Shown: piece after piece, positions 1,718 to 61,959 of the stretch
Layout: every line of letters starts with the position of its first letter
Numbering within the stretch: position 1 is the first letter of the stretch
Assembly: GCA_964187785.1 (NCBI GenBank)
Contig: OZ076409.1
Coordinates: 39,620,001 to 39,684,000, forward strand
Origin: Amphiscolops sp. MND2022
Lineage: Eukaryota
Length of the DNA: 64,000 bases
Reading direction: 5' to 3'
The notes under the pieces: model-generated
What the model was told of the DNA's origin: nothing
What the model saw: only the letters and a program-made list of their open reading frames with translations
Database searches by the model: none
Translations under genes and position numbers: made by a program

Positions 1718-2603
1718 GAATTGAAAAATGTGGTAATTTGTGAATCCAATGGTTTCACATTTCGTTTTCTAATTTGCAATTTTTTTTATTTAAAATTTCA
1801 AGAAGGAAAAGAAACTAGAAACTCTGTTGAATGACAACCTTGAAAACAAATAGAATAATGGTGAATAAAAACAGTCAACATATATCAAAGAGTTCATCCT
1901 CTTTAGGGATAGTTCTAATGCCTTTTAGTGAAGCCATAATCGGTAGTGCATGAGGTCGAAATTTGTTTTCGCAAAACTTTGGAGTTTGCGAATTCTCCCT
2001 CAGAAGTTCAACTGTCGAGACACGGGTCTCGCGCGACTCACTCAGAACATCTACATTGTTAATGTAATCGGGGATGGTTGCGTAGGAGTCACCGGGACAT
2101 TTAATGCTGACGCACGTCAGATATTTTTTGGAGATTGTGGCATCTTGGAGGGTTCCGGTTGGTTGTTTCCTGCCCAGAAGCAATCGCAACTTGCTCATGC
2201 AAAACTGTGGATGAATCTGCAAATTAAAAAGAAAATAAGTTGAACAAGTGAAACACTATGAATTTAAAATGAACAGTTTTTCAAGTCAAATTGTAAAAAC
2301 CTCCTGGACGGCCTTTTCATTAACAATTGTTTTAACTGCGTCGAACAAACGAAACTTGAAAGGACAAGCTCTCTGAATTTTTTCTGTTGCAGTGAGAAGA
2401 AGCAATGCCAGCAGCTCGGGAAGATCAGGGAATTTGTCATCCGCGTAAGTCCTCGAATGGTCAAGGATCATCATCTCCCGTATCATAGGAATGTGTCCAA
2501 GGGCCAAAAAATTGGTCCCCACTGCAATTGAGTCACCTGTAACGATTTGATTGAGGAAAGACAGAATTATTTTTTGGTTCCAATCGTGAGTAAAAAAATT
2601 TTT

Positions 2604-3130
2604 TGGTGGAAACCAGGACAAAACAGTCAGATTTGAATGTTGACGTACCCCCTTTGGTAGTTGTTTTCTTACAGTTTAAGATATGTATATGGTTTCCACG
2701 ACACATGTGTAAAGATATGGTCCTACTTTCCACAGTCGCTTTCGTGGCCATCGAACAGTGAATGCTATTTTGGTGGAATCCAAGACAATATGCTCAAAAT
2801 GGTGGAAACCAGGACAATACAGTCAGATTTAAATATTGACGTACTACCCCCTTTGGTAGTTGTTTTCTTACAGTTTAAGATTAGTATGCGGTTTCCACGA
2901 CACATGTATAAAGATATGGTCTTACTTTCTATAGTCGTTTTGGGACCATTCAAGAACGAGCTCATTCGTTGAGTGCTAATGAAAAAATGGCAATTGATCA
3001 AAATCTGCCACATTTTGATGACAAGACAGTTATGAATAAATGCCATGTTTTCAAAAAATGCCATGCAAAATTGATAGGTGTTTTCGTGAGACTAGGACTT
3101 TTGAGACAAATTTTGTGTTTATTACAAGTC
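2604..3130 (+). repeat. 199-bp repeat array plus associated tail, inside the JmjC intron
   Basis: Unit core gacgtactaccccctttggtagttgttttcttacagtttaag recurs at 199-bp spacing (2661, 2860). Confidence 0.95.
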
Positions 3131-3420
3131 AAGGAGAAAAGTATTCGTTGCTATTACATGTCATGATGGTTGGGACACCGGGGACAAAATATGGGCGGCC
3201 TGGTCGCGTTTACAATGTTCATATTCAGCTTCAAATTGTTCTGATTCACGGTTCAATAGCAATAGCTGAACAAAGAGAAATTGTTGATCTCACTTGTCCG
3301 TAATTAGGATTCTAATTAATTGTTAGCTAGCAATGGAATACTGCCTAGCAAAAACTTGCATAACTTCGAAACCAAATTTTACATTGTATTACTTTGTTAA
3401 AGACTCAGAATTGTTAGACA

Positions 3421-3770
3421 TTGAACAGTGAATGCTATTTTGGTGGAATCCAAGACAATATGCTCAAAATGGTGGAAACCAGGACATTACAGTCAGATTT
3501 AAATATTGACGTACTACCCCCTTTGGTAGTTGTTTTCTTACAGTTTAGGATTAGTATGCGGTTTCCTCGACACATGTATAACGTTATGGTCTTACTTTCC
3601 ACAATCGTTTTAGGACCATTCAAGAACGAACTCATTTGTTAAATGCTTATGAAAAATGGCAGTTGACAGAAATCTGTCATACTTCGATGACAAGACAGTA
3701 ATAAATAAATGCAATTTTTAATAAAATGCCTTGCAAAATTGTTTTCAATGTTTTCGTGAGACAAAGACTT
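3421..3770 (+). repeat. 199-bp repeat unit plus tail; 2604-3770 is largely duplicated at 6233-7590
   Basis: The linker 3130-3420 is near-identical to 6960-7251 (identical ORFs 3040-3303 and 6871-7134). Confidence 0.9.
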
Positions 3771-3781
3771 TTTAAAGCCTG

Positions 3782-4220
3782 GGTAGATCGGTTTTTGCCG
3801 TACGATTTTCATATTGAACAAACACCGGGGAGAACTCTGGGAATAGCTGACTATTTGTCAAGGCATCCTTCCTAATGTGAAGGATCAATCATTCAATCTG
3901 AGGAATTATTCAAAGATTGGTTCACCGTAAAGGTAGTAGACAAGTTCACAAACGAATTAAAACGGACGGTATTGGCGAGAAGAAACGGACCAATCAAATC
4001 GCGAGAGAGTGTAAATCGAACGCGGAAAACATGCAAACGAGTATTGACACTGTAGAGTGAAAAAGAAAGTATTAAGTTGTGGCAAAATTATGCATCGTGC
4101 CAATACCGGAAAAAACGCCAAAATTACAAAAATGAATCCAACACTAGAAAGAGATCGTCAGCTAAATTCGTTCAGAATTAGTCAAGTGTACGTAAAAGCG
4201 AATTACGAAAAAGACCAACT
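3782..4220 (+). mobile_element. Gypsy pol fragment (end of RNase H and linker)
   Basis: VDRFLPYDFHIEQTPGRTLGIADYLSRHP...ELFKDWFTV...SQVYVKANYEKD. Confidence 0.85.
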
Positions 4221-6232
4221 GACACTTCTTTCATAACTCAAAGAGACTAAAGAAGACCATAATACCTTTCGTGAGGACAAAATGAAGGTAGTTGGCAGGC
4301 ATAACTAGCATGTCACTGGGTGTAACATTGAGTCGGATGCATCCTTCTTCCAGTTCATTGATGGCACCAAAGAATGTGGGCCTGAAACATCAAACTAAAT
4401 CAAAACTAGTTTTTATGCACTGTTTCTGGAGTTATTGGTGTCCGTTGTTTCGTTGAAAAAAATTAATTTATAAATTTATAATCAACTCTTATAAAATTCA
4501 AAAACTCTTCGTTAGTTTCAATTAAAAACGCTTACGTTTGGTCATTTTCTGCATCTGACCATTTCTCGAAGATTGCCATATTCTTTTTTGTTGGCTTGAC
4601 CAAGAAAAAAATTTTCTCGCCACGAAGAACAGTATAGCAAACAGAAGTTGCTGAAAAGTCTTGGTGCAAGTTGTGTGCGCTGAGTCCTGCGTAATCAGCA
4701 GATAATATGAAGTGGCACATGAATAAGGCTCGAGGCTAGTCTTCCCAATGAGTTTTTCAACCAGGTGACCAATGGAATTGTCTCTCACCATCTTTGGGAC
4801 TGTGTACAGCTTCTTAAACACAAAAACTTAGTTTAAAAAATGAAAATAGTTGAAAAATGAGGTTATTCTTTCATCAAGTTTCCCAACTCACTTTTGGCTT
4901 CATCCTGATATCAATAACATTCAGTGGATACTTCACGTCATCAGGGCCACATGAATTCAAAACATCTACGAACTCCGGTATGGATAGAGATTGCGTCTGA
5001 AACTAGGAAGTATTCATATCGTTTTATTGGAGAGAGGTAATGAATAATTTTTGTGAAATAATAACCATGGTGAAATGTGAAAAAAATAGATAAAACACTA
5101 CATGAATCCAATATACGAGACATTTTGGTTTTTTAAAAGACAGTATTTTTGCGAAAAGATAATGAAAAACTTACAGTGCCGATCTTTGCCGATTTCACAT
5201 CTAGTTGCTGCTCCGGATCAGTCAAATTTGATGCCATCAGGAGTTGCTGGACTTCACTGGGAAAATGCGCACTCCTGTCAACTTTGGGAAGCTGTATACC
5301 AGGACAATGGTTTGCACCACTTTTCCAAAGCAGAGGTATGCCGTGTTGCAACAGAGAGTCTAAATGCACACTTGGATTCTCCTGAGGGCCCTGCCACTCG
5401 TCGAAAGAAAACCCACATTCCAGAGGAATTCTCTCGCAAAATTCAAAGTACCCTGTGGTACCAAAAGGAGATGGGGGATACTCTGAGAAGGTGACATCAA
5501 CAGGCATTGGAGCTAGGGCTACTTGGCAAGATAGTGATCTTGCGACGTGATTCCGGAGTACGTACTGGTACGCGAACAACTTGCCACAACTCAGACAAAT
5601 ATGGGGACTTTTTTGACGACCTTTTGCAGCTGCTGGAAAACAAACATGTGTAAACATTTTGATTTGGATTTTTTGTTAATCTTCCTCCCAAACCCCCCGC
5701 CCGTTCTTTATATCTTTCCAGATCATAAGTATTCGAGCGAAAAACTCAATAATTTCAGTAAGGCTAAATAACTTACGATATTTGTACATGGAGACTTCTA
5801 TGCCGGCATCAATTTTGGCTTTTTGCTTGACACAGTACTTAGCGTTCTTTTGATGACGCATCCGACTTTTCTTATTAGTGAATAACTGTCCACAATTCTC
5901 ACAGGTCAGTTCTTTTTTCTTCCAGTCCTCATAGGGCATTCCTGGGCACTGCTTCTCATGACGCTGGAGGTTGAACAACCGATCAGTGACGTAATCACAG
6001 GTGCCATTGGTACAAGAAAATAGGTTGGTCGAGCTTTTTTTGTACTTCTTGTATGATGGTGCTTCATTCTGCCTTTCAGTATTTGGCAACAACTGCCCGC
6101 ATTTCTCACACGTCACTGCTTGTGACTGCGATGAGCAAGCCTGATCAGACATCTGGAATATAGGTTTAAAAAAGAAAAACATCATTTGCATTGAATTTTG
6201 TTAAAGTCCTCAAAATGGACAATAAACTCACA

Positions 6233-7590
6233 CTGGTGGAAACCTAGACAAAACAGTCAGATTTGAATATTGACGTACTACCCCCTTTGGTAGTTGTTTT
6301 CTTACAGTTTAAGATATGTATGTGGTTTCCACGACACATGTATACTGATACGGTCCTACTTTCCACAGTCGCTTTCGTGGCCATCGAACAGTGAATGCTA
6401 TTTTGGTGGAATCCAAGACAATATGCTCAAAATGGTGGAAACCAGGACATTACAGTCAGATTTAAATATTGACGTACTACCCCCTTTGGTAGTTGTTTTC
6501 TTACAGTTTAAGATATGTATGTGGTTTCCACGACACATGTATACTGATACGGTCCTACTTTCCACAGTCGCTTTCGTGGCCATCGAACAGTGAATGCTAT
6601 TTTGGTGGAATCCAAGACAATATGCTCAAAATGGTGGAAACCAGGACATTACAGTCAGATTTAAATATTGACGTACTACCCCCTTTGGTAGTTGTTTTCT
6701 TACAGTTTAAGATTAGTATGCGGTTTCCACGACACATGTATAAAGATATGGTCTTACTTTCTATAGTCGTTTTGGGACCATTCAAAAACGAGCTCATTCG
6801 TTGAGTGCTAATGAAAAAATGGCAATTGATCAAAATCTGCCACATTTAATGACAAGACAGTTATGAATAAATGCCATGTTTTCAAAAAATGCCATGCAAA
6901 ATTGATAGGTGTTTTCGTGAGACTAGGACTTTTGAGACAAATTTTGTGTTTATTACAAGTCAAGGAGAAAAGTATTCGTTGCTATTACATGTCATGATGG
7001 TTGGGACACCGGGGACAAAATATGGGCGGCCTGGTCGCGTTTACAATGTTCATATTCAGCTTCAAATTGTTCTGATTCACGGTTCAATAGCAATAGCTGA
7101 ACAAAGAGAAATTGTTGATCTCACTTGTCCGTAATTAGGATTCTAATTAATTGTTAGCTAGCAATGGAATACTGCCTAGCAAAAACTTGCATAACTTCGA
7201 AACCAAATTTTACATTGTATTACTTTGTTAAAGACTCAGAATTGTTAGACATTGAACAGTGAATGCTATTTTGGTGGAATCCAAGACAATATGCTCAAAA
7301 TGGTGGAAACCAGGACATTACAGTCAGATTTAAATATTGACGTACTACCCCCTTTGGTAGTTGTTTTCTTACAGTTTAAGATTAGTATGCGGTTTCCACG
7401 ACACATGTATAACGTTATGGTCTTACTTTCCACAATCGTTTTAGGACCATTCAAGAACTAGCTCATTCGTGAAATGCTTTCGAAAATTGGCAGTTGATAA
7501 AAATCTGCCATATTTTGACAAAAAGACAATTATGAACAAATGTCATTTTACATCAAAATGCCTTGCCAACTTGTTTTCAATGTTTTGTTT
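6233..7590 (+). repeat. 199-bp repeat array (about 3 units, linker, 1 more unit) just upstream of the JmjC gene
   Basis: Units at 6294, 6493 and 6692 (period 199); a further unit from 7252. Confidence 0.95.
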
Positions 7591-8860
7591 TAATTAGACT
7601 AGGACATCGTTAGCCAAATTTACTGGCTCTAGCTCTACTTTTTTGTCCACGAGTATTTGTGCAATATATAATTCATCTTCCTCTCTCTGCGCGTTTCTCG
7701 GTCTACGGTAACTCAAACAATTTAGAGCTTTGCATCGAAAATGACTGTATATGAATAAAATTAATTGATCATCTAAATACAAAAATATATATGAAAAGAA
7801 CAAATCAACAAGTTTCTTCTGTTGAAGCAGTAGTGAAAGAGTGGCTCGAGAGGGCTTATAATTTCTTCTTTGGATTTCTGCTGTACTGGATTTGATTTCA
7901 GGGGTACTGGTTCTGTTTAGAGCTGAGCCCTAAAAGGCTTGACGTGAAGATTATTGTTCGGTCTCCAGATGTCATCGAAAATGATCTCTTCATCATACGT
8001 GTTTTTTTGGGTAACTTCGTACTTTGTTTTCCCGTTGGGGTAGAACACTTGGCAGTAGTAGCAAAACCCAACTTTGCGTGGGGCATGCGACTTTCCAGGT
8101 AATTTGTTAACTCCGTTTTCGCCATTTTGTGAGATGACTTTATCCATTGAAGCAAGAAGCGAAAATGAGTACAGATGTATGAATTGTGGAGAGAGACTGG
8201 GTGCAGAAGAGGGTTTGCGGAGAAACCAAGTACAGATGACCTGGTAAGAGAGGCTGATTGATGGCAGAACAAGAGACTGAATGATGACAAAAAAGAATAG
8301 AGACTGGATCGTTTGAGTTTGTTTGGCAAGAATGAAAGAAATGTAATTGAAAGCCAAATTTTTTGGTTAACCCTTATTGGTTGAAATACTGCTTTGATGT
8401 CAGAATAAAGTTAGATTAAAGTGTTTGGTTCTAATTATTTAATTGTAAATGGCTTTTACCATGCCATCTTTTTCAAAGGTAATTGTATTTCGTCATTAAT
8501 TGCGCAAAATGCCCCCTCCCCAAGCGACCGCAGGGGAAAATAAGACACAAGGTTTAATTCTGACTGTATTGTAGTACGTCAAAATTTAAAATCCATTATG
8601 CCGTCCTATGGTCAAAGAAAAATTTCTCAATGTTTGAATGGCGTTTTCGAATAACATGGCGTTTAATATTATCTAGCTTGTCATCAAAATCTGGCAGATT
8701 TTGATAAACTGCCATTTTCGTAGTATCACATTCAACGAATGAGCTAAAACGACTGTGGAAAGTAAGACCCTAACTTTATACATGTGTCGTGGAAACCGCA
8801 TACATATCCTAAACTTTGAGAAAACAACTACCAAAGGTGGTAGTACGTCAATATTTAAAC
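7252..8860. repeat. Cassette copy 1: 199-bp-family arms in inverted orientation around a ~1-kb core with a decayed small ORF
   Basis: Plus-strand arm 7252-7590 and minus-strand arm ~8560-8860. Core ORF MDKVISQNGENG...FCYYCQV. Copies at 13866-15587 and 18882-20811. Confidence 0.9.
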
Positions 8861-13526: not shown

Positions 13527-13866
13527 TGAGAAGTAGACGTCACTAAAAAGATGAACTAATTAGTTCATAGTACCTGCCAATGTCTACGATGAAGAACTTT
13601 ACAGTATGAACATTAGTTGAAGTCGAACTCTATGATACAGATAGTGAATAGTTCATACATTAACGATTGTGTTTGTATTACTTTTAATTCATCTTTCTTA
13701 CCATATCTTCTCCGAGTTAACAGGATAACCAACCGTTCATCCATGTAAAGGTAATTTCTAGTATCGACACTAAACGAGTTAAATTTCTCACGCCAAGGCG
13801 CAGGTAATCTGGAGATTTTGGCTCCTTCCTTGGCTTTTAAAATACATACTGTTACATACTTTTACA
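13527..13866 (+). mobile_element. Probable 3' LTR of the 10121-13371 element
   Basis: PPT aaaggggggaa followed by TG at 13527; the right end is uncertain (ACA at 13856 or 13866). Confidence 0.55.
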
Positions 13867-15587
13867 TATTGACGTACTACCCCCTTTGGTAGTTGTTTTC
13901 GTACAGTTTAAGATATGTATATGGTTTCCACGACACATGTATAATGATATGGTCCTACTTTCCACAGTCGCTTTCGTGGCCATCGAACAGTGAATGCTAT
14001 TTTGGTGGAATCCAAGACAATATGCTCAAAATGGTGGTAACCAGGAAAATACAGTCAGATTTAAATATTGACGTACTACCCCCTTTGGTAGTTGTTTTCT
14101 TACAGTTTAAGATTAGTATGCGGTTTCCACGACACATGTATAACGATATGGTCTTACTTTCCACAATCGTTTTAGGACCATTCAAGAACTAGCTCATTCG
14201 TGAAATGCTTTCGAAAAATGGCAGTTGATAAAAATCTGCCATATTTTGACAAAAAGACAATTATGAACAAATGCCATTTTACATCAAAATGCCTTGCCAA
14301 CTTGTTTTCAATGTTTTGTTTTAATTAGACTAGGACTTCGTTAGCCAAATTTACTGGCTCTAGCTTTACTTTTTTGTCCACGAATATTTGTGCAATATAT
14401 AATTCATCTTCCTCTCTCTGCGCGTTTCTCGGTCTACGGTAACTCAAACAATTTAGAGCTTTGCATCGAAAATGACTGTATATGAATAAAATTAATTGAT
14501 CATCTAAATACAAAAATATATATGAAAAGAACAAATCAACAAGTTTCTTCTGTTGAAGCAGTAGTGAAAGAGTGGCTCGAGAGGGCTTTTAATTTCTTCT
14601 TTGGATTTCTGCTGTACTGGATTTGATTTCAGGGGTACTGGTTGTGTTTAGAGCTGAGCCCTAAAAGGCTTGACGTGAAGATTATTGTTCGGTCTCCAGA
14701 TGTCATCAAAAATGATCTCTTCATCGTACGTGTTTTTTGGGTAACTTCGTACTTTGTTTTCCCGTTGGGGTAGAACACTTGGCAGTAGTAGCAAAACCCA
14801 ACTTTGCGTGGGGCATGCGACTTTCCAGGTAATTTGTTAACTCCGTTTTCGCCATTTTGTGAGATGACTTTATCCATTGAAGCAAGAAGCGAAAATGAGT
14901 ACAGATGTATGAATTGTGGAGAGAGACTGGGTGCAGAAGAGGGTTTGCGGAGAAACCGAGTACAGATGACCTGGTAAGAGAGGCTGATTGATGGCAGAAC
15001 AAGAGACTGAATGATGACACAAAAGAATAGAGACTGGATCGTTTGAGTTTGTTTGGCAAGAATGAAAGAAATGTAATTGAAAGCCAAACTTTTTGGTTAA
15101 CCCTTATTGGTTGAAATACTGCTTTGATGTCAGAATAAAGTTAGATTAAAGTGTTTGGTTCTAATTATTTAATTGTAAATGGCTTTTACCATGCCGTCTT
15201 TTTCAAAGGTAATTGTATTTCGTCATTAATTGCGCAAAATGCCCCCTCCCCAAGCGACCGCAGGGGAAAATAAGACACAAGGTTTAATTCTGACTGTATT
15301 GTAGTACGTCAAAATTTAAAATCCATTATGCCGTCCTATGGTCAAGGAAAAATTTCTCAATGTTTGAATGGCGTTTTCGAATAACATGGCGTTTAATATT
15401 ATCTAGCTTGTCATCAAAATCTGGCAGATTTTGATAAACTGCCATTTTCGTAGTATCACATTCAACGAATGAGCTAAAACGACTGTGGAAAGTAAGACCC
15501 TAACTTTATACATGTGTCGTGGAAACCATATACATATCTTAAACTGTACGAAAACAACTACCAAAGGGGGTAGTACGTCAATATGTA
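13866..15587. repeat. Cassette copy 2 (199-bp arms plus ~1-kb core)
   Basis: Near-identical to 7252-8860; a 1-bp change in the T run near 14731 shifts the core ORF frame. Confidence 0.9.
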
Positions 15588-15667
15588 AATTTTGATATAC
15601 CGTATTAGTGTCATGGAAATTTTGCCTAATTTTGAATGCATCTTTAAAATCAGGGGAGATGTTTAAA

Positions 15668-15982: not shown

Positions 15983-17376
15983 GTTTAAATGTTGGTTCAC
16001 CATAGACGCAGAAGAATTCACAAAAGGGAAAGAACAAACGTTATTGACGAAACGAAACGGACTAATCAAAACGTGTGACAGCTACACAGCACAAAGCGTA
16101 AAGTACATGTACACGTATGTGACGAGAGTGTAAACATTTTGACAATATTAATCAGCGTTCAAAGTTTGACCAAAACGGCAAATTGAATTCTTACGCCAAT
16201 CCGATAGAAATGGATAACTTCAATGAAAGTGACCGAGATTTGAGTTCTTCACGAATTAGCAAAGTATACGTCAGAGCTAATTACGACAAGGACAGAACCT
16301 TACAAAAAATTATCGGACTACTGAAGGAACGCAATGCAACACAAATTTCAAGACTACCCCCTCCATGGCGAGAAAAGTTCAATTCGCTCAGTTTAGACAA
16401 TAATGGGTTATTATACATGGAGGAAAGATTGGTCATTCCAAAAGACATGAGAGATAACATGCTCAGTGCCATACATTTCGGACACGCAGGCAGGGACGCT
16501 ATGCTTTGTGAAGCAGCCGATGTTTGGTGGCCGCGTATCCACCGCGAAATTGTCGAAAAAGCGAAAAATTGCCAGCAATGTAGCCAATCAGGTAAAAATT
16601 TAAAATGTTTACAATCTCAAAATGGGTTTTGGAAATTGACAAATCCGGAAGTACCTAATGCAAAAATCTCACTAGATTTCGCAGGGCTAAAAACAAAAAG
16701 AACAACATACTACCCGTAGTCTCCGTCGATAATAATACTGGATGTCCAGATTCCATGTTCCTACCGGATACAACGGCACACAGGGTAGTCGAATTTCTGA
16801 ATGAGTATATTTCAAAAAACAGAATCCGCGTAGAATTCGAATCGATCCTGGCACTGTGCTCAAAAGTCAGAAATGTAACCAATTTTGTAAGGAGTTTTGC
16901 ATTGAACAAGTAGTGTGCCCGAGACCACCGCGTGAACGGAAAAGTCGAAAGGATGATTAGAAATATAAATGAACCATAACTGGTTGAGAATAGACAAAGA
17001 TACAGTTTTAACAAGGGATAATTTAGGACTGTCCAGGATTTTATTTGCACTAAGAAACCAATAAGGCGCAGATGGGAAATCGGCCTTTGAACGGCATTTG
17101 AACAGAAAACCTAATACAATAAAGAGAGTTATGTTGAAAAATTCATTTCAGAAGCCGACCCGAAAATTGAATTGAGCCCAGCGGACTTCAGCGAAGAAGT
17201 GGATTCGACCATTCTGGTCAGAGAGCGAGTGCGCGGGTCAAACTTAGAAGGCGCCTGCAAAAAGAAGAAAGGGAAAATTATTGGCGAGGCGAGCCCTTCC
17301 ATCTCAATTTTGCCCAAGAAGGGAACGACAGTGATCTATTCGAAGAGGGATGTGGCCCTACAGAGATCCAAACTGA

Positions 17377-18296
17377 CCAAATCGCCACAATCGGACAAAG
17401 AGCCAAAACAAGCAAAAGTGCCAAGTCAAAAGAGGGCAACAATTGTACCAGATCCGTCAAGTAGCGAAGAAATGGGAGCACACGAATGCAGTTGGTGGTT
17501 GGATAACAACGAGCAAAGCGGAAAAGCCGAAGAGCAAGCGGAACATGCACATCGAGAGAACACCGCTATACTTGAGTCTGCGCATGAAGAAACAAAGACA
17601 TCCCCACTAAAGGCGAATGTGGAATGGGAGATCAGCCACAAGAACCCGACAACCCAAAAATCTGCACGCAAGACCAAGAAGCCCAAATCGCCACAATCGG
17701 ACACAAAGCCAAAACAAGCAAAAGTGCCAGGTCAAAAGAGGGCAACGATTGTACCAGATCCGTCAAGTAGCGAAGAAATGGGAGCACCCGGATGCAGTTG
17801 GTGGTTGGATAACAACGAGCAAAGCGGAAAAGCCGAAAAGCAAGCGGAACATGCACATCGAGAGAACACCGCTATACTTGAGTCTGCGCATGAAGAAACA
17901 AACACATCCCCACTAAAGGCGAATGTGGAATGGGAGATCAGCCACAAGAACCCGACAACCCAAAAATCTGCACGCAAGACCAAGAAGCCCAAATCGCCAC
18001 AATCGGACACAAAGCCAAAACAAGCAAAAGTGCCAGGTCAAAAGAGGGCAACGATTGTACCAGATCCGTCAAGTAGCGAAGAAATGGGAGCACCCGGATG
18101 CAGTTGGTGGTTGGATAACAACGAGCAAAGCCGAAAAGCCGAAAAGCAAGCGGAACATGCACATCGAGAGAACACCGCTATACTTGAGTCTGCGCATGAA
18201 GAAACAAAGACATCCCCACTAAAGGCGAATGTGGAATGGGAGATCAGCCACAAGAACCCGACAACCCGTAAATCTGCACGCAAAACCAAGAAGCCC
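17377..18296 (+). repeat. In-frame 306-bp (102-aa) tandem triplication in the Gypsy tail ORF
   Basis: KSPQSD.KPKQAKVP...KSARKTKKP occurs three times in ORF 17172-18359; period 306. Confidence 0.95.
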
Positions 18297-18881
18297 GACT
18301 GGTTGGGCCACAATTTCATGAAGACAATTGATCGAGATGATGTTGCCGAAGAAAAATAGACGAAGAAACCTAAAAACCTGAAACAAACACATTGTTAACG
18401 TACATGTAAACTACAGTGTTATTCTACATACATGTGCAATTTTAGTTGAAGTTATCCTTATGTAGATTGTGTATTACTTTATTGGTCCACTGGTAACCAA
18501 TCAAATCATTTTGCAATGAATGGTTTTGATGTAAATCTAAATTGAGTCTTTTTTCAGTATTCATTACGACTGTTTTTATTTCAAATAAGAACTACGCTGT
18601 CAGTGACTTGAAAATTTGACGCATGTTGAAAATAACATGGGAAAATGTCGGACACGACATTCACCTATGAACAAAGTTCACAGAGATTGGTTGACACTTG
18701 ACAAGACCCACGGCAAGAACGTGGCCTCCATCGGGTCTCAAAAAGGCTAATTTCGCAGTCTCACATCTCCAAAACAACTCGAAATGGTTCAATTTGGTAG
18801 AAACAAATGTTTCTTGACTTTTTGCAAAAAAACAATGGTTTTTGTTTGAAATTTCAACCATCATTGTTGAATGGTCAACTG

Positions 18882-20811
18882 TCAATACAGTCAGATTTAA
18901 TTTGTGACGTACTACCACCCCCTTTGGTAGTTGTTTTCGTACAGTTTAAGATATGTATATGGTTTCCACGACACATGTATAATGATATGGTCCTACTTTC
19001 CACAGTCGCTTTCGTGGCCATCGAACAGTGAATGCTATTTTGGTGGAATCCAGGACAATATGCTCAAGTTGGTGGAAACCAGGACAATACAGTCAGATTT
19101 AAATATTGACGTACTACCCCCTTTGGTAGTTGTTTTCTCACAGTTTAAGATTAGTATGCGGTTTCCACGACACATGTATAAAGTTAGGGTCTTACTTTCC
19201 ACAGTCGTTTTAGCTCATTCGTTGAATGTGATACTACGAAAATGGCAGTTTATCAAAATCTGCCAGATTTTGATGACAAGCTAGATAATATTAAACGCCA
19301 TGTTATTCGAAAACGCCATTCAAACATTGAGAAATTTTTCCTTGACCATAGGACGGCATTATAGATTTTAAATTTTGACGTACTACAATACAGTCAGATT
19401 TAAACCTTGTGTCTTATTTTCCCCTGCGGTCGCTTGGGGAGGGGGCATTTTGCGCAATTAATGACGAAATACAATTACCTTTGAAAAAGACGGCATGGTA
19501 AAAGCCATTTACAATTAAATAATCAGAACCAAACACTTTAATCTAACTTTATTCTGACATCAAAGCAGTATTTCAACCAATAAGGGTTAACCAAAAAGTT
19601 TGGCTTTCAATTACATTTCTTTCATTCTTGCCAAACAAACTCAAACGATCCAGTCTCTATTCTTTTTTGTCATCATTCAGTCTCTTGTTCTGCCATCAAT
19701 CAGCCTCTCTTACCAGGTCACCTGTACTTGGTTTCTCCGCAAACCCTCTTCTGCACCCAGTCTCTCTCCACAATTCATACATCTGTACTCATTTTCGCTT
19801 CTTGCTTCAATGGATAAAGTCATCTCACAAAATGGCGAAAACGGAGTTAACAAATTACCTGGAAAGTCGCATGCCCCACGCAAAGTTGGGTTTTGCTACT
19901 ACTGCCAAGTGTTCTACCCCAACGGGAAAACAAAGTACGAAGTTACCCAAAAAAACACGTACGATGAAGAGATCATTTTCGATGACATCTGGAGACCGAA
20001 CAATAATCTTCACGTCAAGCCTTTTAGGGCTCAGCTATAGTATAGAGTCTAAACACAACCAGTACCCCTGAAATCAAATCCAGTACAGCAGAAATCCAAA
20101 GAAGAAATTATAAGCCCTCTCGAGCCACTCTTTCACTACTGCTTCAACAGAAGAAACTTGTTGATTTGTTCTTTTCATATATATTTTTGTATTTAGATGA
20201 TCAATTAATTTTATTCATATACAGTCATTTTCGATGCAAAGCTCTAAATTGTTTGAGTTACCGTAGACCGAGAAACGCGCAGAGAGAGGAAGATGAATTA
20301 TATATTGCACAAATACTCGTGGACAAAAAAGGAGAGCTAGAGCCAGTAAATTTGGCTAACGATGTCCTAGTCTAATTAAAACAAAACATTGAAAACAAGT
20401 TGGCAAGGCAATTTGATGTAAAATGGCATTTGTTCATAATTGTCTTTTTGTCAAAATATGGCAGATTTTCATCAACTGCCATTTTTCGAAAGCATTTCAC
20501 GAATGAGCTAGTTCTTGAATGGTACTAAAACGACTGTGGAAAGTAGCACCATATCGTTATACATGTGTCGTGGAAACCGCATACTAATCTTAAACTGTAA
20601 GAAAACAACTACCAAAGGGGGTAGTACGTCAATATTTAAATCTGACTGTATTGTCCTGGTTTCCACCAATTTGAGCATATTGTCCTGGATTCCACCAAAA
20701 TAGCATTCACTGTTCGATGGCCACGAAAGCGACTGTGGAAAGTAGGACCATATCATTATACATGTGTCGTGGAAACCATATACATATCTTAAACTGTAAG
20801 AAAACAACTAC
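18882..20811. repeat. Cassette copy 3, inverted relative to copies 1 and 2
   Basis: Core ORFs are now on the plus strand (19600-20040, 20166-20375); 12-bp insertion near 20036. Confidence 0.9.
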
Positions 20812-26479: not shown

Positions 26480-26935
26480 ATTTTAAATATCGACGTACTA
26501 CCTACCCCCTTTGGTAGTTGTTTTCTTACAGTTTAAGATATGTATATGGTTTCCACGACACATGTATAAAGATATGGTCTTACTTTCCACAGTCGCTTTC
26601 GTGGCCATCGAACAGTGAATGCTATTTTGGTGGAAACCAGGACAAAAGTCAGATTTGAATATTGACGTACTACCTACCCCCTTTGGTAGTTGTTTTCTTA
26701 CAGTTTAAGATATGTATATGGTTTCCACGACACATGTATAAAGATATGGTCTTACTTTCCACAATTGTTTTAGGACCATTCAAAAACAAGCTCATTCGTT
26801 GAATGCTAATAAAAAACTGGCAGTTGATAAACATATGCCATATTTTGATGACAAGACAGTTATAAATAAATGCCACATTTTTAAAATAATGCCATGTAAA
26901 ATTGTTTTCAATCTTTTCGTGTTTTGACGTACTAC
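26480..26935 (+). repeat. 199-bp-family array, 173-bp deletion variant
   Basis: Same core; the spacing between units is 173 bp. Confidence 0.9.
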
Positions 26936-28419: not shown

Positions 28420-28574
28420 AGTGTTGGCGTGGAATCCAGGACAAGCACTGTCGTGGAATCCAAGAAACGCTTAACATCAAAGAGAAATTTTGTCCTGGAT
28501 TCCACGACTTTTCTCAATTTTCGTGTCCCGGATTCCACGAAAATCAGCGAAAAGCTTGCCTGTGCACTGTAATG
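28420..28574. mobile_element. Right terminus of a CACTA/CMC-like element
   Basis: Ends gcttgcctgtgcactgtaatg, identical to the right TIR of 47025-47329; gtggaatccaggac subterminal motifs in both orientations. Confidence 0.8.
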
Positions 28575-29230
28575 ATGGGCTACTATTTATGGTTTCTCAT
28601 AATACAAACTGCTCATTTAATTCCTCATCCAAAAGATTCTGGAAGAGAAGAGAGAAGGGGGGGAAAGGACTAAAAGTCCTTTTGTGATCTCGGTGACAGA
28701 CTTTAATCAGAGTATATGTATTGCTTCTGAGATAGCACACTATTAACTCTAATGTTTGCACCGCTTTCCATTCAACTTTGGACTCAGTGTCCGCGCGCCT
28801 TTATTTGGTATACGAATAGCGTCGGTTTGGCGGCATATGGCCTTTGAGTCCTTTAATTTAGAATACAGCACAGGAATGAATGAGCAAGTAAGTGAATAGC
28901 GTGCTGTGATTGGTTGAGAGATTGGAGGTACAGCGCGTTCAGCGAGACAGGCGAGGAAACATTTGAACTCGTTTCCTCTACCTGTACGCCTTGGTGTCCA
29001 ATTTCTCAACTGCTGTGCATATCTATCATAATTTTACATGTATTAATACATCAGATTCAACTTTCAAATGTATATTTTACATGACAATTCCCGAATAATG
29101 ATCACAAAGTGTTTCAAATTTGATAATATAAAAGCTCCAAGTAAAATGTTGTGTATGTAAAATCAATCATAGTAGAATGAGTTTATAGTTCATCTTCTGT
29201 GGCTTTTGGACTGTTAGTCCTTTCTTCAGT

Positions 29231-30040
29231 TTATTGGAAGCGTACCGGGAGAGTACCATAGTTGTATCCGACCGAATACCAGTTGCCATCGCAGGCGGCA
29301 GCCCGCGACACTCCCCCTGGCATAAGCAGAAAAGCGCCAGCGTTCATGCCATCTAAAAACGTTCTCCTCCTTGCCTGAGTCTCTGCTAGAGTCTCTCCTA
29401 CTGTCACCGTTCTGTCCAGGTATTCGTTGACGGTTTCTTCCTGGATTTGTTGTACTGGCTTCCCGCGTATTATGCAGTCCGAGTAACCGACCAAAGAGGA
29501 CGATTCAGCTAAGGCCATATAGATGAAATGACTCGCCACTGCTTCCATTGACGTAGATATAGAGGATGGTGAATTGTCACGAGAGCCACAGAGGTATCGG
29601 GGTCCTCTGTCCTGTTCGGGCGGCGATAGCGGGGTGTCCACTTGTGGCACTAGGTTGCGGCAGATACTTATAGGGTGGTTAGATTTGATCCTGTTGTCTC
29701 GACTCACGGGCCCATTTCCTCTTGCTAGATCGAATTACTTCTCCCTGAAAGTAGGAAAGGGCGGCACATTAGGTCTGGGTGTCACGGGTCTTTTCTGCGT
29801 CGGATTAGCTGAGGTAGACGGAATCAAGATGGGTTCTGCTAGTTGTCTTTCAATACATCTAGCCATGAGCTTAACCTCTTCAATTTCGTCTTCTGACGAT
29901 AAATACAAATCGTCTACGGAGCACGAGCTGAGGACTTCCATCTCTTCCTCAACGCTGGACATATAAATAATTGCGGATTCCCACTCAGCTTTCGCTGCGC
30001 CGATGAAGTCCATCGGGAAAGTCTCAGTGACGTCGGACAT
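29231..30040 (-). pseudogene. Extra sense-strand ORF of the Gypsy element, unknown function, disrupted near 29735
   Basis: Consecutive ORFs 30040-29735 and 29707-29231 with protein-like composition; runs through the PPT and stops inside the LTR. Confidence 0.55.
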
Positions 30041-35448: not shown

Positions 35449-38400
35449 CTAGTATCTGTAATTATCAGTAAAGTTGGGGTTAGGGTTAGGTCGAAGATTA
35501 TATTTCCCTTCTCTAGGGCTAGAATTTTCCTCATTTCTTTCATTTTCCGATATTCCGGGCACGGTAATATCTGCGCCTCTATTTGAAGCAATTTCTGTGC
35601 TTTCTAAATCATTAGTGGCGTCATTTTCATCTTCTGCCCTCATAGGCGATTCATTCAGGGAGGACGGTACGTCTCGGTTAGTGGCCGGTCTCGGCCCTAT
35701 TGTATTCTCGTTTGCGTCACTTTCATTATTTTCTGTCTCAATTGGCGTTTCGCTCAGCGGGGACGGTGCATCGTGTGTGGTGGTCGATTTCGGCTGTATC
35801 TCGTTTTCAATGACGTCATTTTCATTCCTTTTGCTGCTGCTACATTCGTCGTTGTTCGCGGTGCTGCTTTCATTTTCGGTGACGTAATAGTCTACTCCGC
35901 CCCTTGCGGCGTCATTCGGTAGGCGCGTGGCCGTGTGCGGCCAATCATCTTTTCTCGGCTCAAACAGCTCGTACTCAAAGTCCGCTTCCCATAAGATGGT
36001 GTATAGGTCATCTTGCGGTATTATTATTGATTCGTCAGGCTGTAATTTCTCTTCCTTGTACTTGTCCTCTAGTGGGGCGTTTGGAACGAATTTTTGGAGC
36101 CTGATACGGTGTAAGATTTGCGTCTTTTTCGTCTTTAAACGACGCACTATATAACTGTTGTTTGGTAACACCTTTTGAATAACAAAGGGACCAGTCCACC
36201 TGAAGTCCCTAAATGGAATTTTAGAGCCTTGAGTATCCGCTTTCGTTTGAAGCACAAAACAGAGGTCCTTTTCTTGTAGTGGAGCCGCTTTGGCCTTTCG
36301 GTCATAGTATTCTTTGTATTTTAAATAAGACTGCATAGTAATCTTTTTCGTCTGGTCAATGAAAATTTGCGTCCTCTGCTGCAGTTCTTCTGCGAATTCG
36401 GTTGTCGGTAGGAAATTTTTATTAGGATTATTTCCTAATTTATGATCAAGGACATTGTAGGGAATTCGGCCGTGAAAAACTTTGCTAGGCTCACAACCAA
36501 TACTAGAGTGATAAGTAGTGTTATAGTTGAGCACAGCTAATGGCAAATATTTGTGCCATTGTCGTCGATATTCCCCTGAGGCCCTTTTCAAATTAGTCTT
36601 CAGAGAGGCATGTGTCCTTTCGAGTTTGCCGATAGTTTGCGGGTGCTTGGTAGTTGCGCATTTTAGTGTTATTCCCAAAATTTCAGTGATTTCCTCTAAG
36701 ATCTTTGATGTAAATGCGGACCCCTTGTCCGTGATGAGGGTTGTCGGTAAATACGAATGTTTCGTCATAATATCAATTATTACCTTGGCTACATTTGCGG
36801 CTGTTGCCTCAATTAGCGGATAGGCAAATAAATATCTTGAGAATACATCTATTGCTGTCATCACTGTTTGGTATCCGCCGCTAGTTGGTAAATTTGGTAG
36901 TAAATCGATTTGCATGGCATCTTCTGGGCCTAGGTCTGATTCGGGCAAATTCAGTAGTTCGGGTGTGATTACCGTGTTGGGGACCCTTTTGTCCTTGGCA
37001 CATGTTTCGCAGCCTTCTACCCATTTTTTGACATGTTTTGCAATTCCGGGGTAGTAATATTTTTGGCGAATTTCCTGTAGCGTTTTAGAAATGCCCGGGT
37101 GGCGATGTGCCGTGCCATGTATTGCTTGTAATAGTTCTTTGAGTAAATGCTTTGACAATAAAATTTGGTGATATTTGACATGTCCGGTTTCGTCGTAGTA
37201 CTGCCGCGTCACTATTTCGTCTTTGAGGACTATTCGCTCGATGTTGTTCAAATAGTATTTGTACCTAATATCCTGTTGAAGGATTTCGCCAGAGTATATT
37301 TCTTTTTGAAGTTTCGCCTTCGGGTCTCGAGACTGTTCAAGAAGTATCTGATTCGTTCTTCACAATTTTTGTGTGAAGTTAGTGATTTCCTCAACCGTAT
37401 TCTCTGATATGGCGTCAATTTGAATTACTGTCTCAGGGACCATGAGTTCTTTTTTGGATTGCAGTTTCCGGTCCCAAATCTGTTGTTCTGTTTCATTGTC
37501 TTCTTCAGTAAAGAAGACTTGTTCTTCTTCAGATACCCCTGCTGATTGGACATTGACCTCGATCGGTCGGGTTTCGACGTCCTCACCTATTTTCAGAACT
37601 AACTTTTCAGTAGGGTCCATTTCCATACGGGACAGTTAGTCCGCTGCTGTGTTGTTTTTGCCTGGAAAGTGAGCTATGACAAAGTTGAATTGAATGACAA
37701 AATCACAAGCATTCCAGAGCGGCGGTGGGATTATTTTCGTCTGGAAAAACCTCGTGACCGATTTGTTATCTGTGAGAATAGTCACGGGTTGAGGGGTTCC
37801 CCAGAAAATATGTCCGAATTCGTTGAATGCGTAACAAATAGCCAGGAATTCCTTTGCATATATCGACATTTTGAGCTGAGAAGGAGTAAAAGTTTTGGAT
37901 CCGTATGCGATTGGTGCATAGGACTTTTTGTCAGAAGTGTATTTTTGATTTGGGTTGTCTTCGGTCAGTATGGCGTAACTGGCTGCCGTAAAACTTGCAT
38001 CGGTCATGAGGACCAGTTGTTTGTTGGGCAGTGGTTGTTTCAGTGCCAGTTGACTGCATCTGTCTAAATCTCTATTGATCTCATTGAATTGTTCAACCAG
38101 CTCTTGAGTGACTAGGACCGTTTCGTCTAGGTTTCGGATACTCTTGGTATATAATTCCTGTAATAGTTGAGGAAACCAAGATAGCGTTGTAGGGCCTTCT
38201 TGGACTTTGGGAATTTTGTCTTTTCCAAGAAGTTAGTAATTCTCTCTTTTTGGGGCCTTACACCTTCAGGTGTAATGGTTCTCGCGAGAAAGTCGATTTC
38301 AGTAGCGCCGAAGTGGCACTTGTGCATGGACAATTTCAATCCTGCTTCTCTGATACATTGGAATGTTGCTTAGATTGACGATGAGTTGGTTAGCGTCTGT

Positions 38401-39950
38401 CGCTGCGACACCGATATCATCTACATATTGAGCACATTGGTCTGCTTTGATAACGCGATCCAGGTATTCCCTCATAAAACTGGAGAAGGCCGACAGGGCT
38501 CGACTGAGTCCTTGGGCCAATCTCCTATATGCAAATGTTCTGCTGGCGAAGTTAAAGTCTAGCATTTCAATGGATTTCTGGTCCGCCATGGGAAGGCAAT
38601 GGTAAGCTTGGGAACAGTCGAGTTTGCAAAAAAGTTTCTTGCCAGCCAAGGTGCTGACTGTGTGGTTGTTACTGACGTAGTCATCCGAAATCAGGTTATT
38701 GATTTTTCTCAAATCCATCAACAGTCTCAGTTTCCCGTTAGGTTTTTTCTGCGCGAATATTGGACTGGCGTACTTTGAGAATGGTAGTGTTGTTATGATC
38801 CCATATTTATTGAGTAACGCCAGTTCGACCAATATGTCCTCTTTGAGGTTGACCGGAGTAGGTAGGCTCTGACTGTAAGCAGGTGACTCGTCCTTTGGGG
38901 TCAGTTTGACCGTAAATTCCTCGTTGACGCCAACGTCAAATCTATGGCGTGCAAAAATATCATGAAATTCTACTAGTAATGTTTCTAGTTGTCTGATCTC
39001 ATGTTGTTGTAACATTGAGTCTTTCCAGTCAAAATTGCTAAGGAATTTTCGACGGGATTCCGCATCGTCATGCGGGTTGAGTTTCTCTAAATTTTGCAGG
39101 CTTCGTAATTCTTTGAGAATTTTTGTTGTATTGGGGTATGGGTCGTTTCATCCCCTGGGTTTTCAGGCGTCGGGAACCAATATTGTTTGTATTGGTCGTT
39201 TTTTCTATTAGCTTTAAGAAGGCTGCTGATATAATAAATAGCGTCTTCTTCGTTTTCATTCAGTAAATGCCATGTGGACATTGGGTCTTTTGGCCTGACA
39301 TGTTTCATCTGTTCGGGAGTCATTACTGAGAAATTTGTGATATGCATCCCTTTTTTGAGTTTATAGGGCTGGTCTGTGAAATTGTTGACGTGTGTCTTCA
39401 TAGCCCCTTCATGTAGTGTGACTATGGCGGCACAAAAGGTTATGTCGCATTCTTCATGCAGAAGATCGCTGGGTTGTAGTATGCCCGTAACTGCATTTTC
39501 TGCGTAGATTTGAGATTGGATAGGTATGACTACATTGTCATTTGGTGGAAGTGTGACATCTTCAGAGTTGAGGATTAGTTCCAATACACTTGAGTATTTG
39601 TGGTCAGCCGTCTTGAGTTGCATCGAGAAGTAGGGAAAATTAAGAAAACCTTGGCGCATGTCCAGGACGGTGTGGTTCCTTTGGAGGAACATCAGTCCGA
39701 TTGTAGGGCTAGACAATTTTTCCATTACAATGAAGATTTCATGAAATTCTATGTCGCCCACTTCGAACTTTAGTTCGACGGTACTCTTCGGGGTTTCTAA
39801 GTCTCCATTTGCGACCATAATTTGGAAAGACGGGGCAGGACCTTCTTTTACTATGGATTGAGGGGCCAATAGGCGTATTTTCCTGAGGTCTGCTTCCGGT
39901 ATTGCACTGGAGTGGGCCCAGTGTCAAATTAGGCCGTCTAGAGGTAATTC
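35449..39950 (-). pseudogene. pol: Gypsy pol (protease-RT-RNase H-integrase), frameshifted
   Basis: DTG protease motif near 39925 (frameshifted); YASPIF, KLDCSQAYH, QYVDD; TDAS, YAKEFLA, TDNK; H..H..C..C, QIDLL, TDKGSAF, LERTH, GPF. Confidence 0.93.
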
Positions 39951-42217
39951 CCCAAAATCCATTGGGAAATAGAGCATTCGTCGTTTAAATTTAAGTCCAA
40001 GGTTTGTTGAGAGGGGAACATATGATGGTTCTCCTTCTTTGGCCACTAAAAGATGTAAGAAAGACGTTTCATCTAAAAGGCTATTAGAAGCATTGTGGTC
40101 TTCCTGTCGGTGTGTGGCGTCTACTTCTGCTATCGTTGCCTCAAAGTTCGGTTGCCAAAGATCAATAAGGGCTCGAGATAGTGTATTGTCTGGTATTGCA
40201 GGATCATCCTCGTCATCTGTTGGAGGATAATCTTCAGTGCGAAACTGTAGGTTACTCTTGTCGTAAATTTCGTCGTCCCAGTACGGATCTTTGCCAAACT
40301 CGGGGTCGTAATACTGAGGGTTATAATCTTCGATAGTTTGTAGGGGTCTGAATTGAATTTCGGAGTCATTGTGATTGCTATTGCGTCGATATAAGTATGG
40401 GTGGTCACTGTGGTTAATATATTGAGTTTCCATGCGGGCGTTGTCCATCTGCTGCTGCCAGACAGTCGATGGCATTCCTGTGGTGTCGTTTTGAGTTTGT
40501 TTATAAATAATGTTTGGTGGGTCAGATATGACATATTGTCCCACTGACATCTGGTTGCAAACTTGGCCTGAAGGTGTAGTTTCAGGGTAAGATGACTTCT
40601 TGGACGATTTCTCATCCCCGGAAGTTTCATCGGCATTATCTTCGGGTCGTGTTTTTTTGGGACGTAAATGTGCCCCAGCTCCTTTCCAGCACCTCTCAGC
40701 AGGGTGATTCGTTTTCTTGCAAGTGGGGCATTCTGGGTATGTTGGACGTTGGGGCTTTTTGCCGTTTTTGTCCGCCAGTTCTTTCTTCTTTTTCAATTTG
40801 GGGCAGCTCTTATAGAAGTGGCCTGTGGCTTTACAATAAGAGCATTGTGCGTCCTTGTTGGTGTTTATTCCGTTAGACAGTAGGTTGTTATTACTAGTGG
40901 ACGCAGAGGCCATTGTGGCCATTGGTAAGTCATCTGAATCTTCCAATGCATTGAGTTCAAGCTCTCTTTCAAGATGAGCTACGATTTCTTCGTATGTATC
41001 GTTCTCCAGGCGGGCCATGTTGACAGATCGTTTGAGTTTTGGAGGCAATTTTGCGTACAATAAGCTGTCAATCATGCTCTTTGCATTTTCACCAAATGCC
41101 TTTTCTGCCCCCTGGTTGAGTTCCTCCAAGAAATCCGGCACTTTCATGGTATTTGTGTCAAAGGTCAACCGATGCCATTTGTGTTTTGCCGTTGCTTGGG
41201 ATTCCGGTTTAACATATTTCCTCCGGAATATGACCAGCACATCCTCAAGTGTTTGAAGGTTGATTGAGTATATGTTCCTGAAGGTCTGCAGGGCCCCTTT
41301 CCTGAGCAAAGAATGAAAATGGTTGATTTTCATTTGCTCTGTCATGGCCGGATGCATTTCGATCATTGTGTGGAACAAGTCCTCAAAAAGTTCAAATTTC
41401 TCGCTTTTCCCATCAAACGTCATTAGTGTGGTTTGGACTGGTCGGATGGTCATTGTTTGTGGTTTATTTTGCAGATTGACCAGGACGTCGGCCAGTCTGT
41501 TCAATGGGTCCTGTGGGGTTGCAGGAACCTCTGGTTCTGGGGCTGGCAGAGTGGTGTCCAAAGAGACATTAAGGTTGGATTGCGGTCTCTCCAGGTTCGG
41601 GATTGAGTGGATTCGTCCGGTCAGAAAATCGGGAATTTGCTGTTGGGTTTCGTTAGCTCCTGTCACCATGTAGTGACCGGTGGCCGTGGTGTCTCTTAAA
41701 TCACCAACAGACCTTGAGTCCTTTTTTGTTATTTTTGATCTCAACCCGGATGGATGTTCCCTATTTTCCTGACTACAAGGGGACATACTGGCCTCAGTGT
41801 CCCTGTTCCCTGAAAAAGACATAGAACTCACAATGTTCTTGAATTTCAAGAAAAGTTCTCTCCGTGATGGCATCACTGATACCCCAATTTATTTGACTAT
41901 GCATCATGGACATCATTGAATCCATCTCTTGTGATAGTCTAAGATTGAATTCATTTGAGAAGGTCTCAAGGGATTGTCTAATGTCATTTTGCCTGGGAGG
42001 TTATTTTCATAGCGAAACTAGCATACTGATTTCCAAAGTGCTCATTCGACTCTACATCTCCCTGTACCGATGATTGTTCAATAGCATCAGCTAATTCTCT
42101 TTCTATGGGGTTGTTAATCCCATTTCCTAGCATCACGTCCATATTTTCTATATCGGACAGCATGTCCACCTCTCTAGATTTTCTAGCTTTTGCTATCTGG
42201 CGTCTGGTAGAAGGCAT
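39950..42217 (-). pseudogene. gag: Gypsy gag with two CCHC knuckles, frameshifted near the N-terminus
   Basis: ATG at 42217 (MPSTRRQ); TFDGKSEKFELFEDLF; CSYCKATGHFYKSC and CPTCKKTNHPAERC. Confidence 0.88.
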
Positions 42218-61433: not shown

Positions 61434-61959
61434 TTTGAATTTTACATCAAAATTTGCCACACAACTTCAAACATGATGTTCCTAAAAAGAAATACCAATG
61501 GATTGCGATCAAAACGGAAAAAAATCCCCGAATCCCAAGTCTCAAAACTTCTCTCAGCCGCAACAATATAGTTTAGGTGACGCCGTAGTCTAATTGATCA
61601 GCAAAACGAAAAGTATTCAGGTATGTCAGACAAAAGTAAAACAACACTAAAAGACACCCTATCCCTCTATCAGTAAGGACACTAAAGACGTACAGGTCTT
61701 GCTGACTCCTAGCAGAAAACAAATATCTAATTAGTTTCATATCAGAACTACAAAATGCAAGAAGTGGATGAGAAACAACGATCACGAAGTTTTTTATTGC
61801 TCCGTGTGGAGCGTGCTCTACTGTCCATTGAAAAAATTGGAAGATTCATATGATTCTGATTTGATGTTGGGGATTTTCGACAGCGTCGAAGTAATTCTTT
61901 CCCACTATTGAAATCGAATTTCTTACTCGTATTTACAATACATGTTGGGATCATGCAGT

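Follow-up and report, generated by a model that had tools for sequence, protein, structure and literature searches.

A multi-copy DNA transposon of the Amphiscolops genome carries a KDM2/KDM7-type JmjC gene that may act against its own silencing

We analysed a stretch of 64,000 nucleotides from the genome of Amphiscolops sp. MND2022 (assembly GCA_964187785.1, contig OZ076409.1, here called C1, positions 39620001-39684000), referred to below as the window, in which a spliced gene for a JmjC protein had been predicted inside a nest of transposons. The original prediction was right that the gene is transposon-borne, and the nest turned out to be something more definite: the gene is fixed cargo of one multi-copy DNA transposon bounded by terminal inverted repeats (TIRs), where it is accompanied by genes for a transposase, a SET protein and a third protein, which we call gene X. 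The element moves as one unit, its four genes are under purifying selection, and the JmjC protein keeps its metal and cofactor ligands in intact copies. As to what this protein does for the element, we lean somewhat towards a role in keeping the element itself from being silenced.

The gene is cargo of a cut-and-paste transposon

The carrier is a TIR element of 47,092 bp at -18517 to 28574 (all coordinates are those of the window, so that the element starts 18,517 bases before it and its in-window part is 1-28574). Homology between copies ends sharply at both positions, at a perfect 21-bp inverted repeat. The right TIR (28554-28574, minus strand) reads CATTACAGTGCACAGGCAAGC inward and is followed by an AT target duplication at 28575-28576, and in the 1.07 Gb of genome searched the 21-bp sequence has 859 exact matches (423+436), where the control has 0+0. 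The window is matched at 99.5% identity over 30-47 kb by four close copies, and between the copies on C1, C8 and C10 47-48 kb are shared at the same level, with unrelated flanks. A 2-bp target duplication was present at 18 of the 19 sites tested (11 of 12 fetched pairs and all seven longer copies), a count that leaves out three further fetched stretches with same-direction repeats, and the element ends read CAT..ATG.

The window also records the insertion itself. The element split one long terminal repeat (LTR) of a retrotransposon, the remainder of which lies at 28575-29309 (plus strand), and in the partner LTR (41968-43394), which is uninterrupted, the site is empty and AT occurs once. The recipient retrotransposon occupies 35449-43394 together with 28575-29309; its LTRs are 97.4-98.4% identical and its frames are in pieces (gag-like, weakly dUTPase-like at E 0.017, reverse transcriptase and integrase).

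With TIRs, a duplication of fixed length, a DDE transposase and dispersed copies, the element belongs to the cut-and-paste DDE/TIR class, and we take it to be autonomous. Segmental duplication is ruled out because of the TIRs, the target duplications and the unrelated flanks, and a Helitron or Polinton-like carrier by the TIRs, the 2-bp duplication and the DDE fold. Copy number and flanks, which the original prediction had proposed to check, point to mobility as well: besides the 47-kb copies in unrelated surroundings, a genome search with exon 2 of the gene gave at least 151 matches at 47-100% identity (150 of 803 candidates scored), and among the matches listed a transposase match lies 15-17 kb downstream on the same strand for 29 of the 30 best JmjC matches, as judged by eye.

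Copies were drawn from six subfamilies, with one copy each of F91, F56, F52 and F51, two of G and five of the window's own, and all six subfamilies carry the JmjC gene, the transposase, gene X and the SET gene. Compact forms measure 17.8 kb in F51 and 18.5 kb in G; the larger form of 47 kb is inflated by repeats and retrotransposon debris, including broken LTR-retrotransposon pieces that are copied along with it. Inside it a 1.6-kb unit occurs three times (7250-8859, 13981-15589 and 19098-20719; two direct, one inverted, 97-99% identical), bounded by 199-bp repeats and with frames lacking a Pfam match, and a 306-bp tandem repeat lies in a retrotransposon-like tail (17115-18359, plus strand), apparently with a copy number that differs from one sister element to another. 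There are also short derivatives (139-1245 bp), with the same ends as the complete forms. A non-autonomous derivative of about 305 bp at 47025-47329 shares these terminal repeats apart from a mismatch at one end.

Gene structure and the state of the window copy

As predicted, the gene consists of seven minus-strand exons (1875-6152), separated by six introns of 79-1729 nt that all run from GT to AG. Exon 1 (5777-6152) holds the start codon, a CxxC remnant and the C2HC fingers A and B, both of which are kept in distant subfamilies; since an AG acceptor lies directly upstream of the start codon, a further 5' exon is possible. Exon 2 (5175-5632) encodes finger C and the lead-in to the JmjC domain, exon 3 (4892-4996) the N-terminal part of the JmjC core, and exon 4 (4536-4812) the Fe ligands His 4666-4664 and Asp 4660-4658 together with the 2-oxoglutarate-binding Lys 4615-4613. 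The distal Fe ligand, His 4284-4282, falls in exon 5 (4266-4381), which is 79% identical in F51 and F52. Intron 5 (2537-4265, 1729 nt) is filled by the element's 199-bp repeat array and is absent from F51, in which exons 5 and 6 form a single frame. Exon 6 (2301-2536) completes the JmjC core and adds a helical stretch that by eye resembles the JHD region and has no Pfam match, and exon 7 (1875-2216) the C-terminal tail and the stop codon.

As assembled, the window copy gives a joined frame of 1910 nt with a stop at codon 431. The same exons yield 1911 nt and 636 open codons in three of the four sister copies tested, two anchors being unmatched in the fourth. The difference is a single G missing from exon 4 at 4667: the extra base is present in 29 of 29 sister loci, and the deleted form occurs once genome-wide, against 74 copies of the adjoining 23-mer. 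The one-base deletion that had been placed at about 4672 lies at 4667 instead, and the iron-binding motif, first read as LHQD, is WHQD (HTTWHQDF in intact copies), with the predicted ligands present in the sisters. The transposase of the window copy is also one G short, in a G-run where four of four sisters have that G (983 against 1162-1175 aa). Both losses look like homopolymer assembly slips, though they may be real mutations.

A KDM2/KDM7-type JmjC domain behind C2HC fingers

When exon 4 of an intact sister was compared with the PDB, all 14 matches at E<=1 belonged to the KDM2/KDM7 group (PHF8 7e-13, KDM7A 4e-12, PHF2 4e-9, KDM2A 1e-7), and in subfamily G the matches were likewise 14 of 14 from this group. 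These results uphold the earlier assignment to a KDM2/KDM7-type JmjC domain that lacks the usual PHD or CXXC partners. The Pfam JmjC profile has no match in the window copy's own exon frames, is weak on the sister exon-4 half-domain (E 0.018) and matches clearly where a distant subfamily supplies a nearly complete domain (E 1e-9).

WHQD, GEK and LHFV are present in intact copies, the HxD motif being frameshifted in the window copy, and the 2-oxoglutarate lysine had been correctly recognised in GEK. The HxD motif and the lysine were found in 10 of the 11 copies examined (in the window copy the deletion displaces HxD), and the distal histidine also in 10 of 11; the single F56 copy fetched has lost the exon that carries it. 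The ligands corresponding to His 4666, Asp 4660, Lys 4615 and His 4284 recur in F91, F51, F52 and G. The HxD...H triad, the preceding Thr, the TSV motif and the cofactor lysine are all common to KDM7/KDM2 and to the element protein, which we infer to be an Fe(II)/2-oxoglutarate lysine demethylase of KDM7-like specificity.

What sets the protein apart from KDM7 and KDM2 is its setting: three leading C2HC fingers, no PHD, CXXC or F-box by Pfam, and a gene that is multi-copy and mobile. Exons 1-2 give only C2H2/C2HC-type Pfam matches, and no PHD finger as in KDM7 proper; exons 6-7 have no Pfam match to the CXXC, PHD, F-box or LRR that follow the JmjC domain in KDM2 proper, and the frame ends at codon 636. 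The three or four C2H2/C2HC-like fingers originally proposed reduce to three complete ones, spaced C-x2/4-C-x12-H-x3/6-C, that is, C2HC and not C2H2. An extra N-terminal CxxC without an in-frame His had been taken for a first finger shifted in this copy. It reads alike in all 30 close loci, which rules out a copy-specific shift, and alignments to distant subfamilies begin only at residue 45; we therefore regard it as a family-wide remnant.

The genome has its own gene of PHD-JmjC-JHD type, intron-rich and located on C4, which is about 35-49% identical to the transposon-type sequences over the HxD exon. A genome profile search for JHD (PF17811) gave one match among five candidates, in this host gene only. 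That the predicted gene might itself be the host orthologue, single-copy and syntenic, can be dismissed, since that orthologue is a separate gene. In a tree of 24 rows and 91 columns, which used 15 of 62 short-protein matches, the host exon is joined to two sequences of canonical KDM2/7 type (96/89) and stands away from the transposon rows; this separation is what the tree comparison proposed at the outset yields, and we draw neither a donor nor an order of events from it because branches are long and the host KDM6 row is misplaced. Host genes that we take, from their motifs, to be of KDM4/5/6/7 type are also present; together with the spliceosomal introns and a gene with an EMI domain they point to an animal genome.

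Two protein searches (61 and 482 candidates) gave no longer JmjC homologues, which is weak evidence, and a further one gave the 62 short relatives, mostly of the same transposon type and all unnamed. Another multi-copy JmjC-matching family, with 206-aa frames (E 8e-4) and at least 11 copies (e.g. C1:26460262), may be another subfamily of the element. Two near-identical genes on C4 and C2 (L091 and L092), presumably JMJD4-like to judge from a motif, suggest a recent duplication.

A cassette of four genes under purifying selection

The transposase gene lies off the window on the minus strand (about -8979 to -13099, L031/L032). Its frame is 983-1175 aa long, and many of the near-identical copies have it fully open, at about 1175 aa. 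No Pfam family matches its catalytic part, and among 1.84 billion proteins it has 336 relatives; of ten looked up, one has a name, 'hypothetical protein'. A model built from a 97-sequence alignment reached pLDDT 89.6 (35 when folded from a single sequence) and matched RAG1 at E 3e-7, with Z 20.0 and an rmsd of 3.6 over 381 residues at about 11% identity; other structural scores were 18.2 for HzTransib, 12.3 for the P element and 8.8 for Hermes. The motifs DIWGD, SGD, DxxH and ExxEKSNH are conserved, the positions invariant in a 13-sequence alignment (A2) include D268, D338, H341, H555, E558 and E561, and by analogy with RAG1 we take these motifs to be the DDE core. The tail is BRCT-like, BRCT_2 passing the Pfam cut-off in subfamily G only (E 3e-6). 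On this modelled structure the protein is a DDE enzyme of the RAG1/Transib fold with a C-terminal BRCT-like domain.

Its placement within that fold is less simple. Transib elements have 5-bp target duplications and CAC termini, and a true Transib is ruled out by the 2-bp duplication and the CAT termini found here. The CMCT clade is described as having 5'-CA..TG-3' termini, target duplications of 2-5 bp, and C(2)C and H(3-4)H motifs (PMC12730594). The termini and the 2-bp duplication fit that description; neither motif is conserved in the 13-sequence transposase alignment. Because the motifs are lacking in the one comparison and the duplication length differs in the other, we file the element under neither CMCT nor Transib. 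A Transib preprint (10.64898/2026.08.26.747230) concerns Drosophila elements.

In metagenomes we found 14 transposase loci on contigs of 1.1-7.4 kb, with gene X beside the transposase in three, which means that the lineage also occurs outside this genome; JmjC or SET was seen in none of the 14, on contigs too short to decide the point. None of 26 candidates for transposase relatives in viral contigs held up. A 30-bp coding tandem repeat in the N-terminal part of the transposase (L031:9500-10000) appears to vary in copy number between sisters. Downstream of the transposase in the element lies a short RING-like frame (L031:5297-5587, minus strand; Pfam E 8e-4, far below the cut-off), for which no coding match was seen in distant subfamilies.

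The SET gene (about -4368 to -8095, minus strand, off the window in L031/L032) passes the Pfam cut-off. Against the PDB, the top 14 of its 23 matches are SETD8, weakly (E 7e-6 to 8e-5), ahead of KMT2A at 2e-3. The Y334F substitution permits dimethylation by SETD8. All ten SET copies in which the motif was found have Phe at the position of SETD8 Y334, and the best PDB chain, 3F9W, is the SETD8 Y334F mutant itself (table in PMC3529403). In subfamily G the SET motif NH is replaced by NY. The exon before the SET domain has an integrase-fold likeness (0.88-0.90) and falls at 0.95 with an unnamed, mostly mollusc cluster, a lead that the SET gene sits behind a region resembling the tyrosine-recombinase fold. 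Gene X (about -3858 to -1080, plus strand, off the window in L031/L032) has no Pfam match; its structural look-alikes are Tudor/Agenet domains with scores of 0.82-0.87, below the 0.9 threshold, and its product possibly contains a Tudor-type barrel.

In the comparison between the window's subfamily and F91, the one unsaturated pair, dN/dS of the JmjC gene was 0.25 (57 of 414 synonymous and 55 of 1482 non-synonymous sites; Fisher p 3e-12). The values for the transposase, SET and X were 0.285, 0.30 and 0.35, those for SET and X including some possibly intronic frame, and all four genes were below 1 at p<=4e-6. Against F51, F52 and F56, dS of the JmjC gene is saturated and dN is 0.34-0.41.

A repeated module as candidate docking site

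Upstream of the JmjC gene lie tandem 199-bp units (6218-7586), which carry a module of about 60 bp with the core GGTTTCCACG...AAAGATATGGTC. Further 199-bp arrays are found at about 2585-3750, 8630-8860, 13860-14300, 15360-15590, 18880-19350, 20350-20810 and 26480-26900. The module occurs in introns and between the element's genes. Its identity is 76-85% when the window's subfamily is compared with F51, F52 and F56, across which dS is saturated, and it is absent from 222 kb of flanks, a 30-kb host region, subfamily G and seven short derivatives. A 32-letter pattern of the module has 815 genome matches, against 0 for the control, and by eye 53 of the 68 on C1 fall within 30 kb of a listed JmjC match, 12 in two more clusters, and three are isolated. 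Subfamily G has other repeated words, and its finger region did not align with that of the window's subfamily. GTGGA, a word related to the module, also fills the subterminal repeats. Since short derivatives have moved without the module, it is dispensable in cis for transposition, and we regard it as a candidate protein-binding site.

Neighbouring genes

Two frames outside the element probably belong to the host. A 739-aa frame at 54520-56739 (minus strand) ends in a YTH domain (Pfam E 4e-48) and is, presumably, YTHDF-like by its layout; a 294-aa frame at 60582-61466 (minus strand), whose start is signal-like and which has a hydrophobic segment besides an EMI domain (E 2e-5), is probably a membrane protein.

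Discussion

The proposal that we favour, if with restrained confidence, is that the JmjC protein is a self-targeted anti-silencing factor. Its C2HC fingers, which replace the PHD finger of host KDM7, would bind the module repeated between the element's genes and so dock the enzyme on the element's own promoters; there it would remove H3K9me1/2, H3K27me2 or H4K20me1, the marks that PHF8 erases (PMC11417953), and the loss of these marks would keep the element transcribed. The system would then be an animal counterpart of plant VANDAL/VANC in which the enzyme itself is encoded by the transposon. CpG observed/expected ratios of 0.89-0.95 inside and outside the element suggest that DNA methylation has left little trace, which would make histone marks the likelier route of silencing. 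A profile of the DNA-methylase family, PF00145, has matches in this genome in five of 11 candidates (C10:27908085, C5:32152052, C1674:4484 and C265:5335 among them).

Several points weigh against this proposal. H3K9me3 is the usual mark of transposons. PHF8 rejects trimethylated substrates (PMC11417953), and an enzyme of KDM7 type could therefore not remove it. In mammalian cells the loss of PHF8 activates retrotransposons, by a route independent of demethylase activity (PMC10349869). A plain eraser also leaves unexplained why a SETD8-like writer of a mark that PHF8 erases should be carried along. The finger Pfam scores are below the curated cut-offs (zf-C2H2 E 2e-4), and the ligand of the C2HC fingers may be protein or RNA instead of DNA; the module could instead be bound by the transposase or another protein of the element. 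Finally, the estimate of selection comes from a single pair of subfamilies.

The main rival to anti-silencing is that the cassette manages chromatin at transposition breaks, so as to steer how the donor site is repaired or where the element inserts, in the manner of a 53BP1 axis of its own. SET would lay H4K20 methylation, the Tudor-type protein would read it, BRCT would read the phospho-marks of damage and JmjC would reset nearby marks. The order of the SET matches, SETD8 ahead of KMT2A, and the Phe shared by its copies are in its favour, as are the BRCT_2 match in subfamily G and the Tudor/Agenet look-alikes of gene X, and 53BP1 is reported to bind H4K20me2 and promote end joining (PMC3597678). 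The Tudor support, however, is a lead below threshold for a gene without a Pfam match, subfamily G has NY for the NH motif of SET, and both the zinc fingers and the intergenic module, which short mobile derivatives do without, are left unexplained. We consider break-repair steering unlikely, though worth keeping in view.

It is also possible, if doubtful, that writer and eraser together make a switch by which the element regulates itself, limiting or timing its activity (opened, say, in the germ line and closed elsewhere), or that they have non-histone substrates, the transposase for instance. Each of the six subfamilies retains both an enzyme that resembles a writer and one that resembles an eraser, potentially for one and the same mark, and there are only tens of close copies (74) even though the transposase frame of about 1175 aa is commonly open. 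The known precedents for chromatin enzymes in transposons, however, read as counter-silencing (PMC12730594). That the genes are a passively captured host fragment (Pack-MULE-like) or a duplicated segment of no use to the element, as the retrotransposon filler of the 47-kb form might suggest, is largely refuted and highly improbable given the TIRs, target duplications and unrelated flanks, the purifying selection and retention across dS-saturated subfamilies, including both compact forms, and the separate, rather distant host PHD-JmjC gene.

The anti-silencing proposal has partial precedents. VANC is not known to be a JmjC enzyme. The Arabidopsis MuDR elements of the VANDAL type likewise encode a chromatin factor and have short motifs in non-coding tandem repeats, and VANC proteins bind such repeats in the non-coding parts of their own element (PMC10398659); here, in contrast, an animal is the host, the fold of the transposase is RAG1-like and binding is a prediction. 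Fungal DNA transposons bearing TET/JBP, and SET-bearing HarbingerS and MuDR elements of oomycetes, place a chromatin enzyme inside complete TIR elements (PMC12730594), whereas the cargo here is a demethylase-type JmjC, a SETD8-like SET and a possible reader; the main text of that paper has no occurrence of 'JmjC'. The joining of JmjC to zinc fingers has precedents of its own. It is found in plant REF6/ELF6, which, like Rph1/Gis1, are genes of the host, fall into another JmjC subfamily and have their C2H2 fingers at the C-terminus. In yeast Rph1/Gis1 the fingers are of classical type (PMC4085034), while those of the element are N-terminal and C2HC, before a KDM2/7-type domain. Our literature search found no JmjC-bearing animal DNA transposon within its scope, outside which lie Repbase Reports and subscription journals, so that a Repbase entry may exist. 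Chromatin enzymes in transposons are thus already known (VANC, fungal TET/JBP, oomycete SET; PMC12730594), and what is new here is the animal host, the set of eraser, writer and reader, the unplaced RAG1-fold transposase and the element-restricted module.

A broader interpretation, which we offer tentatively, is that the element represents an undescribed lineage of RAG1-fold animal transposons with an anciently conserved kit (a DNA-targeted eraser, a writer predicted to dimethylate, a Tudor-type reader, a BRCT-tailed transposase and a docking module of its own), by which every subfamily would control the histone state of the copies belonging to it. The transposase itself, which has a BRCT tail and comes with 2-bp duplications, widens the range known for RAG1-fold enzymes.

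For the question of how DNA transposons of animals evade silencing by chromatin, this element offers a testable case: its young copies are nearly identical and number in the tens, its genes are intact, and it has a candidate enzyme as well as a candidate binding module that varies from subfamily to subfamily. If the fingers bind the module, the protein would be a natural sequence-targeted histone demethylase, and if the broader interpretation is true, an animal genome would harbour a transposon-encoded, sequence-specific histone-demethylase defence against silencing.

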